Positions 29,300-30,251 of a stretch of 42,995 bases of DNA are shown here, in pieces. The position numbers and the translations under genes were made by a program. The notes below the pieces were generated by a model. It did not search any database. It was given only the letters and a program-made list of their open reading frames with translations, and was not told the DNA's origin. The DNA is from a virus (taxonomy: Duplodnaviria; Heunggongvirae; Uroviricota; Caudoviricetes), in IMG/VR virus record IMGVR_UViG_2874920711_000002, positions 1 through 42,995 of that record; one strand, 5' to 3'. Numbering within the stretch: the stretch's first letter is position 1; each line of letters begins with the position of its first letter.

Positions 29300-29544
29300 C
29301 TAAAAAATAATTCTTTAAAATACCTGACATGTAATACAGAAAAAGCACAAAACCATACCTTAAATAAAAACCTGATTATCAAGCAGATATGCATGGATAA
29401 ACTACAAGACGAGATATAAACCACCCTGCATTTAAATAAACAATAAACAACATCAGAAAAATAATTCTGCTCTATGGTTTACATTCAAAAATATCATTTA
29501 TACTTTTCAGAACATCACCAGCAAGGCATAAACAAGGAAACTAA

Positions 29545-29880
29545 ATGAAGTGGATTGTGATTGATACAGTTATCCAGCCATCATGCGGAATATCTTTTTC
29601 AGTCATATGGAGTAAAATAAAATTAATAATCTGGTATCAATCGGATGCTTTCTTACCTCCTGAAAGTATATTTACACTGACTCACACAGGCATCATGCTC
29701 AATAACAAAGTGCTACCTGTAACCATTTACAACGTAGTACCATTCAATAAAACATTCTGGAATTTAATCAAAAACAGCCAGGAATGCCCTACAAATACAG
29801 ATAACGTATTGAATGAATGCTTTAATAACCGTTGCATTCTGCAAATATGTCCTTATGGACTAAAACAACAAAGTCCATAA
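29545..29880 (+). CDS. Hypothetical protein in an AT-rich island, opposite strand to the late operon
   Basis: 111-aa ORF with AAGGAA Shine-Dalgarno 6 nt upstream of the ATG; strongly AT-rich coding and flanking sequence; no recognisable motif. Confidence 0.4.
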
Positions 29881-30251
29881 GGAGTTTACTCACATCTGAC
29901 AAAATCAATATAAACAGCCCTCCGGAGAGGGCTGGAGAGTGGCGCTATGTGCCATTGCATGGTGCCGGGTGCCTCCCGGTGAATTCAGTACCAGCACCTG
30001 AATCCGCGATTATCCCATATACCTACTCGCTGATTGCCCTCCGCACAGGGGGATTCACCATGCCAGTTTCTTTTAACAAACTCCCGCAAACCAGACAACA
30101 GTCAACCGCCTGAATTGTGAAGTATTTAAAAATTTCTCCCGCTAACTGATACCCGGCTAACAGTCTGGCGTTTTCTTTTTCAGCAACGGGAAAGCAACAA
30201 CCCTGTTATCGTGTCGTCTGCTCTTCCTGATAAGCTAATGGCGGTTTGTGA

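Follow-up and report, generated by a model that had tools for sequence, protein, structure and literature searches.

The iraL locus

We analysed a stretch of 42,995 nucleotides (nt) from a virus record of the Caudoviricetes (IMG/VR record IMGVR_UViG_2874920711_000002, positions 1 to 42,995), hereafter called the window. In the corrected map of its lambdoid Q-to-S region, the gene of the Q antitermination protein is followed by a tR'-like terminator, a tRNA gene, a small RNA (sRNA) of the STnc100 family with its own terminator, an AT-rich moron carrying an open reading frame (ORF) of 111 amino acids (aa), and the stub of an esterase gene next to the holin gene S (Table 1). By its sequence this ORF is iraL, an already known and characterised prophage-borne gene and a paralogue of iraM.

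The ORF was identical with iraL of strain CFT073 (WP_000871291.1) at 335 of 336 nt and 110 of 111 aa, and T98I was the sole change in the protein. In the published work a gene counted as iraL when its coding region was 95% or more identical to CFT073 iraL at the nucleotide level (PMC4045071), and the window ORF with its 335 of 336 nt lies within this definition. Compared with K-12 iraM, the identity was 71% at the nucleotide level and 63% at the amino acid level; the amino acid identity between IraL and IraM has been reported as 58.9%, and the identity criterion delimited iraL without overlap with iraM (PMC4045071). The window protein scored 162.6 bits (cut-off 121) with the NCBIfam model NF007393 of the IraM/IraL/RssC anti-adaptor family, covering residues 1-110 of 111, and it matched the solved IraM chain 8twd_A of the PDB with E=9.4e-32. 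An ORF of such length is seldom reached by composition alone: the longest ORF had at least 111 aa in 16 of 2000 dinucleotide-preserving shuffles of positions 29300-29935 (mean 57, standard deviation (sd) 16).

Promoter and nucleotide composition

The mRNA start of CFT073 iraL, published from rapid amplification of cDNA 5' ends (5'-RACE; PMC4045071), matched positions 29512-29543 at 31 of 32 nt, and the transcription start was therefore placed at 29512. The region from -100 to +33 was identical to that of CFT073 iraL at 131 of 133 positions, and the -100 to +33 fragment complements the CFT073 deletion (PMC4045071). The likely hexamers are a -35-like TTTACA (29478-29483) and a -10-like TATACT (29499-29504). 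Natural variants among the sibling loci fall in TTTACA, which is consistent with the remark on -35 variants in PMC4045071. The ribosome-binding site AAGGAA (29534-29539) lies 5 nt ahead of the ATG. Similarity to the K-12 iraM promoter region was looked for in the upstream DNA, and none could be aligned; an iraM-type promoter controlled by PhoP was ruled out on this ground.

The GC content was 0.323 over 29300-29900, with 0.286 in the upstream part (29300-29544) and 0.342 in the ORF, against a window mean of 0.509. No 600-bp bin of the 43-kb window had a lower GC content than the one starting at 29301 (0.322), which falls some 3.7 sd short of the bin mean (0.510, sd 0.051).

The initial annotation, made from the letters alone, had described a plus-strand ORF of 111 aa opposite to late transcription, and our coordinates for it are exactly the same. 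Its other statements on the gene were borne out as well, namely the strong AT-richness (by the windowed GC run, in which this is the lowest 600-bp bin), the good ribosome-binding site and own promoter (by AAGGAA and the match with the CFT073 5'-RACE), and the flanking Q, tRNA, DUF1737 and holin genes (by Pfam and tRNA scan). The product, however, had been regarded as unknown cargo with no recognised motif, and this view has to be given up, because homology search and structure prediction give iraL.

Predicted fold and proposed mechanism

An AlphaFold2 (AF2) model built with the 37-sequence family alignment had a mean predicted local distance difference test score (pLDDT) of 83.7, with 87-97 in the core. 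A shallow alignment of 16 sequences gave a pLDDT of only 37, so the 37 diverse sequences were needed. Foldseek placed IraM in 8TWD first for this model (template modelling (TM) score 0.90, root-mean-square deviation 1.2 Å), and structures of PmrD came next. Among the 14 residues of IraM that contact RssB in the crystal structure (PMC10844676), ten were identical in the window protein (I4, I6, W22, K26, I42, C14, F18, W30, I61 and Y62), and the remaining four were conservative changes (T13S, L75I, H63N and I64V).

The function of IraL has been described by experiment. Deletion of iraL lowers the log-phase level of sigma-S in CFT073 and in Shigella sonnei (Hryckowian 2014, PMC4045071); the sigma-S half-life decreases from about 5 to about 2.5 min when iraL is missing, and plasmid-borne iraL with the native promoter raises sigma-S in K-12 (Hryckowian 2014). 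IraL co-purifies with RssB, and in the two-hybrid assay it bound RssB's N-terminal domain only, unlike IraM, which binds both RssB domains. Expression of iraL is increased in a CFT073 fur mutant, and K-12 iraM is under PhoPQ/Mg2+ control.

From the identity of gene and promoter, the predicted fold, the context and the distribution, all established here, we conclude that the ORF is almost certainly iraL, a self-contained AT-rich moron beside STnc100 in the cargo region between Q and S of a lambdoid prophage, which would act in the lysogen as an RssB anti-adaptor expressed from its own promoter and protecting RpoS. Transcription of the gene would begin at 29512 from a sigma-70-type promoter and run opposite to the late transcription of the phage, so that iraL could be expressed from the resident prophage without induction. 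The PmrD-like beta-barrel-plus-helix core of the protein would bind the adaptor RssB, and RssB bound in this way would no longer hand RpoS (sigma-S) to ClpXP. As RssB is blocked, the half-life and the level of RpoS would rise during exponential growth and pre-arm the general stress response. RssB binding and RpoS stabilisation have been shown in the literature for a protein which, judged by sequence, differs from that of the window in one residue.

STnc100 and its terminator

A perfect hairpin, CAGCCCTC-CGGA-GAGGGCTG, was found between iraL and the tRNA gene. On its minus-strand side it is followed by TTTATATTGATTTTG, a T-run, and on its plus-strand side by GAGAGTGG, which has no T-run. The terminator scan called this hairpin with 8 pairs, 6 of them G-C (it found 5 terminator-like sites against 1.5 expected). 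The hairpin is the terminal stem of the Rfam STnc100 model. In five sibling loci (L001, L003, L004, L005 and L006) the stem has 9 bp (CAGCCCCTC/GAGGGGCTG), and the 8-bp stem of the window has lost one C together with its partner G, a two-sided change by which the pairing is kept. The perfect stem and the minus-strand T-run had been noted in the initial annotation, but its coordinates (29916-29935) were one base off and should be 29915-29934.

Rfam showed STnc100 in a convergent arrangement with iraL at each of the four loci on which it was run (window, CFT073, FDAARGOS_944 and E. albertii), and the sRNA was also found in phages without iraL, for example Nil3 and the Stx phages; the hairpin thus predates iraL and is independent of it. 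The minimum free energy of the STnc100 stretch was unremarkable (z-score -1.37), and the call rests on the covariance model. Each of the loci L006, L008 and L011 contained two STnc100 copies. STnc100 copies are transcribed in enterohaemorrhagic E. coli EDL933, where one was positive in Northern blot, and they were also detected in vesicles; stx2 has one copy 75 nt downstream of it. A connection of the family with PasD and with Q has been drawn (Zhu, Shabalina & Storz 2026 preprint).

The hairpin had been supposed to end late read-through before the ORF. This supposition is not supported: the hairpin belongs to STnc100 and is its terminator. Since intrinsic terminators are ignored by RNA polymerase once Q has modified it, late transcription proper cannot be halted by the hairpin, which can at most keep minus-strand transcripts that are not antiterminated from entering iraL in antisense. 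The terminator scan found no plus-strand terminator after iraL, and iraL transcripts may therefore run antisense into STnc100.

A plus-strand ORF of 93 aa (29832-30113) was rejected as a gene. It overlaps STnc100 in antisense, and RefSeq has only a partial pseudogene there.

Prophage neighbourhood and cassette borders

The features of the region are listed in Table 1.

Table 1. Coordinates of iraL and of the surrounding features in the window
Feature	Coordinates	Strand	Basis and remarks
iraL coding sequence, RssB anti-adaptor of the IraM/IraL family	29545..29880	+	ATG start, 111 aa plus stop
iraL promoter and 33-nt leader	29478..29544	+	5'-RACE match; hexamers inferred
AT-rich iraL cassette (moron)	29300..29914		Lies between the terminator of STnc100 and the nanS-p/DUF1737 gene start
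STnc100-family sRNA	29904..30090	-	Rfam RF02076, 115.4 bits (gathering 47), full-length model 1-206; convergent with iraL
Intrinsic terminator hairpin of STnc100	29915..29934	-	8-bp stem, 4-nt loop, 35 nt past the iraL stop
tRNA, CAT anticodon	30252..30327	-	ARAGORN: Met; RefSeq: tRNA-Ile for the identical gene in sibling prophages
tR'-like terminator directly past Q	30371..30390	-	Terminator scan; role inferred by position
Q antitermination protein gene	30471..31292	-	Pfam PF03589 Antiterm, E=8.5e-55; RefSeq 'antitermination protein' in collinear L001 (FDAARGOS_944)
DUF1737 ORF, 67 aa, N-terminal stub of nanS-p-type SASA esterase	29096..29299	-	Pfam DUF1737, E=4e-17; divergent from iraL
P21-type holin S fused in frame to YdfR/DUF1327	28316..28789	-	Pfam Phage_holin_2_1 and DUF1327 in one ORF
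Insertion sequence IS600 in the lysis region	26664..27926	+	99.6% identical to the annotated IS600 of L001 (FDAARGOS_944)

The terminator downstream of Q would correspond to tR' by analogy with the annotated tR' of phage Nil3. The tRNA with CAT anticodon is presumably of the lysidine-modified Ile type, and the number of tRNA genes at this spot in sibling prophages ranged from one to three. The lambdoid genes around iraL also include RusA, besides Q, tRNA, holin and DUF1327.

The borders of the cassette, at about 29300 and about 29917, were taken from the comparison with phages lacking iraL, whose homology to the window begins only at about 29918 or at 29956 and extends rightwards. Among them phage 75/02 alone has a nanS-p 5' end that can be aligned; in it homology was also found from 29284 leftwards, and the left border was set with this phage; the record of phage Nil3 ends too soon for this purpose.

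The prophage is decaying around an intact iraL, as seen from IS600, the frameshifted holin and the truncated esterase. RefSeq flags the equivalent DUF1737 ORF as incomplete with missing C-terminus, and a full-length esterase of 617 aa occupies this position in strain 97-3250. The alignment with CFT073 revealed two 1-bp deletions: one near the holin stop, by which holin S and ydfR became fused, and another inside ydfR. The flanks of IS600 are collinear with FDAARGOS_944, with an overlap of 3 bp. That the cassette stays intact amid decaying lysis genes may be due to the higher log-phase RpoS that iraL would give to the host.

Distribution

Of 5426 complete E. coli genomes, 1446 had a megablast match to positions 29300-29935, for the most part with 95-99% identity, and among the matches listed every one lay under a coding sequence annotated as 'anti-adapter protein IraM'. 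The cassette was also present in E. albertii. Four phage records from E. coli isolates carry it, so that it also travels on phage genomes. The gene order Q, tRNA, iraL on the opposite strand, DUF1737/esterase and holin was annotated in CFT073, FDAARGOS_944, 97-3250, EE72d, 675SK2 and phage vB_EcoS-640R1. The related-locus search with the alignment of close sequences returned only 7 loci, as its collection contains one genome per species. Taken as a whole, iraL is an ordinary gene: its description dates from 2014, automatic annotation picks it up (as IraM), and about one quarter of the complete E. coli genomes have it. The cassette had been thought to be recently acquired cargo; its foreign, AT-rich composition agrees with cargo, but the number of genomes that carry it (1446 of 5426 in E. 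coli, plus E. albertii) indicates that it is old and widespread.

Enrichment of iraL in Shigella has been reported (PMC4045071), and the 'IraM' of S. flexneri is only 61.7% identical to K-12 IraM. The ipaH-type fragments, IS600 and an IS30-like ORF of the window suggest a Shigella or enteroinvasive lineage, which fits both the enrichment and the low identity.

Conserved C-terminal cysteines

An exhaustive profile search recovered 95 family representatives (50% clustering level), of which 48 had E<=1e-10. The named members, from Salmonella, Citrobacter, Enterobacter, Intestinirhabdus, Dryocola and Kosakonia, were all annotated as IraM. The family alignment comprised 37 sequences with identities to the window protein down to 20%. 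Six columns were invariant in it (M1, P12, W72, C81, C97 and C102), and C92 and P103 were conserved at 97% each, the single exception at C92 having a Cys about 3 residues downstream.

The window protein contains five cysteines (C14, C81, C92, C97 and C102). The initial annotation had suspected a disulfide or metal site in them, and this gains support in that the four C-terminal ones are invariant or nearly so across the family; C14 is not conserved in the alignment. The tail motif of the family is C-P-x8-17-C-x4-6-C-x4-C-P, which takes the form C-P-x9-C-x4-C-x4-C-P in the window (29785-29850). In the crystallographic work the IraM tail (residues 79-107) was cut off, and it was called less conserved, flexible and proteolytically unstable (PMC10844676). 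In our alignment the mean conservation of the tail was slightly lower than that of the core (0.45 vs 0.47), with the four cysteines standing out, and the AF2 confidence of the tail was low (53-68). We found no mention of the Cys4 motif in the accessible literature.

Across the aligned sequences of the Enterobacteriaceae-wide IraM/IraL family, no feature is better conserved than the four C-terminal cysteines, which is a modest new point. Tentatively, the Cys4 tail might be a zinc-binding or redox-sensitive module that controls the stability or activity of the anti-adaptor, or a second contact, though we consider this rather doubtful. If true, RpoS stabilisation would gain a metal or redox input. 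The tail is absent from the current structural model of IraM with RssB and is the only forward-looking lead of this analysis.

Alternative explanations

Several points weigh against the explanation given above. Pfam hmmscan gave no match for the window ORF or for K-12 IraM, even at E<=10, despite the precomputed PF11183 flag on relatives in the protein database; the family assignment was made on NCBIfam, PDB and fold evidence instead. Owing to the 15-nt spacer between TTTACA and TATACT, the RACE-supported promoter was missed by the sigma-70 promoter scan. T98I falls in the uncharacterised tail, and the comparison suggests that it is probably neutral (675SK2 also has I98, and the cluster representative P0001 has M98). 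This copy is presumably expressed and active in its host. The functionality of the host rssB and rpoS lies beyond the view of the window, and in a decaying prophage the iraL copy might in principle be heading for loss. Such decay would suit a silent relic, left intact by chance and either unexpressed or non-functional, and the adjoining lysis genes, which are frameshifted, truncated or interrupted by IS600, as well as the one substitution relative to CFT073, agree with this. Nevertheless the ORF is complete, its promoter, leader and ribosome-binding site agree with the functional CFT073 fragment at 131 of 133 positions, the cassette persists in about 1400 genomes at 95-99% identity, in many cases within degraded prophages, and iraL was shown to be functional in S. 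sonnei; a relic is therefore quite improbable. An orthologue of iraM as in K-12, induced through PhoPQ on Mg2+ starvation and gripping both RssB domains, has even less chance. The name 'IraM' in RefSeq and NCBIfam, the 63% identity to the K-12 protein and the 10 of 14 identical contacts speak for it, but the upstream DNA has no alignable homology to the K-12 iraM promoter and matches the iraL promoter at 131 of 133 positions instead, the literature has log-phase expression and, by two-hybrid, binding to the N-terminal domain only for IraL, and K-12 iraM occupies a different genomic site just outside e14. An orphan moron of unknown function, maybe a disulfide or metal protein unrelated to known systems, would explain the empty Pfam hmmscan and the five cysteines, four of which are invariant in the family; however, with the near-identity to the characterised IraL, an NCBIfam score above the cut-off, the IraM match in the PDB and the predicted IraM/PmrD fold, it has hardly any probability left, and is the least probable of these explanations.

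The hairpin raises a separate question that is compatible with the gene being iraL, namely whether its main role is to insulate iraL from minus-strand transcription coming from the late or tRNA genes. It is a good intrinsic terminator for the minus strand, lies 35 nt beyond the iraL stop, and the two-sided change keeps the pairing. The same hairpin is, however, the terminal stem of the STnc100 covariance model and occurs in Nil3 and Stx phages without iraL, and Q-modified polymerase reads through it, so that any insulation would be a by-product and limited to the uninduced state. We therefore regard insulation as a possible but not the probable main role, with appreciably better prospects than the three explanations above.

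Other features of the window

An ipaH-family effector gene, split into several ORFs with LRR_TTSS, LRR and NEL E3-ligase domains, was found at 849-2597 (+), with a DinI-like ORF (1-249) and an AT-rich stretch (401-1051) ahead of it. The broken ipaH-family gene suggests Shigella or enteroinvasive E. coli as the source. Near the other end lies what we take to be a second IS600 orfA (41859-42182), directly followed from 42183 by a presumably IS30-like transposase ORF. C4 antisense RNA (80 bits) and an isrK-like RNA (62 bits) were detected at 35915-36103 (-), adjoining a 615-aa ORF with Ash/Rha domains (35312-37159); together they resemble an antirepressor control module of the P1/P7 or Gifsy type. 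A second AT-rich patch (40654-41260, GC about 0.38-0.39) lies beside a cI-like repressor gene (39435-40166). Its ORFs 40654-40914 (-) and 40895-41260 (+) had no Pfam match, and the patch could be further cargo.

Comparison with known systems

The closest counterpart is IraL of CFT073, whose gene resides in the potB prophage with the same gene order as in the window. The two agree in promoter and start sequence and in the position and orientation of iraL between Q/tRNA/STnc100 and DUF1737/holin of a lambdoid prophage. They differ in the tRNA genes (three in CFT073, one in the window) and in IS200C and a DUF3927 ORF, neither of which is in the window; the lysis region of the window is degraded by IS600 and frameshifts, unlike that of CFT073.

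K-12 IraM (b1160; 8TWD) shares the family, the fold, 63% identity, most RssB contacts and the C-x10-C-x4-C-x4-C tail, but its promoter is unrelated, and its gene is located beside e14 with no STnc100 near. On locus L002, K-12 iraM (8414-9004) comes after the icdC pseudogene and falls just beyond the point where e14 ends in the annotation; PMC4045071 places the gene inside e14, whereas the annotation of L002 places it outside.

PmrD (PDB 4HN7, 2JSO and 2RQX) resembles the window protein in its beta-barrel-plus-helix fold (Foldseek probability 1.00, TM 0.71-0.76 relative to the target), and it is likewise a small protein binding a partner of the response-regulator type (PMC10844676). Identity is only 13-20%, the partner in the literature is PmrA rather than RssB, and PmrD is without the Cys4 tail, since its chains have only 81-88 residues.

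The sRNA of the window agrees with the STnc100/PasD family (RF02076), as 187 nt including the hairpin match the full model and the position near Q is as described; its stem falls one base pair short of that in sibling loci.

With stxAB and other morons of the Q-to-S region, iraL has in common that foreign cargo lies between Q/tRNAs and the lysis cassette and adjoins STnc100. The initial annotation had called this place the stx-equivalent locus, which is right as far as the position between Q/tRNA and the lysis genes is concerned, but not in detail: stx lies upstream of STnc100 along late transcription, whereas iraL lies downstream of it on the opposite strand, against late transcription and with its own promoter. 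Q, stxAB, STnc100, 260 bp, esterase and S follow one another in the Stx1 phage 75/02. By this order the stx slot upstream of STnc100 corresponds to positions 30091-30251, which are empty in the window, and iraL occupies the next gap.

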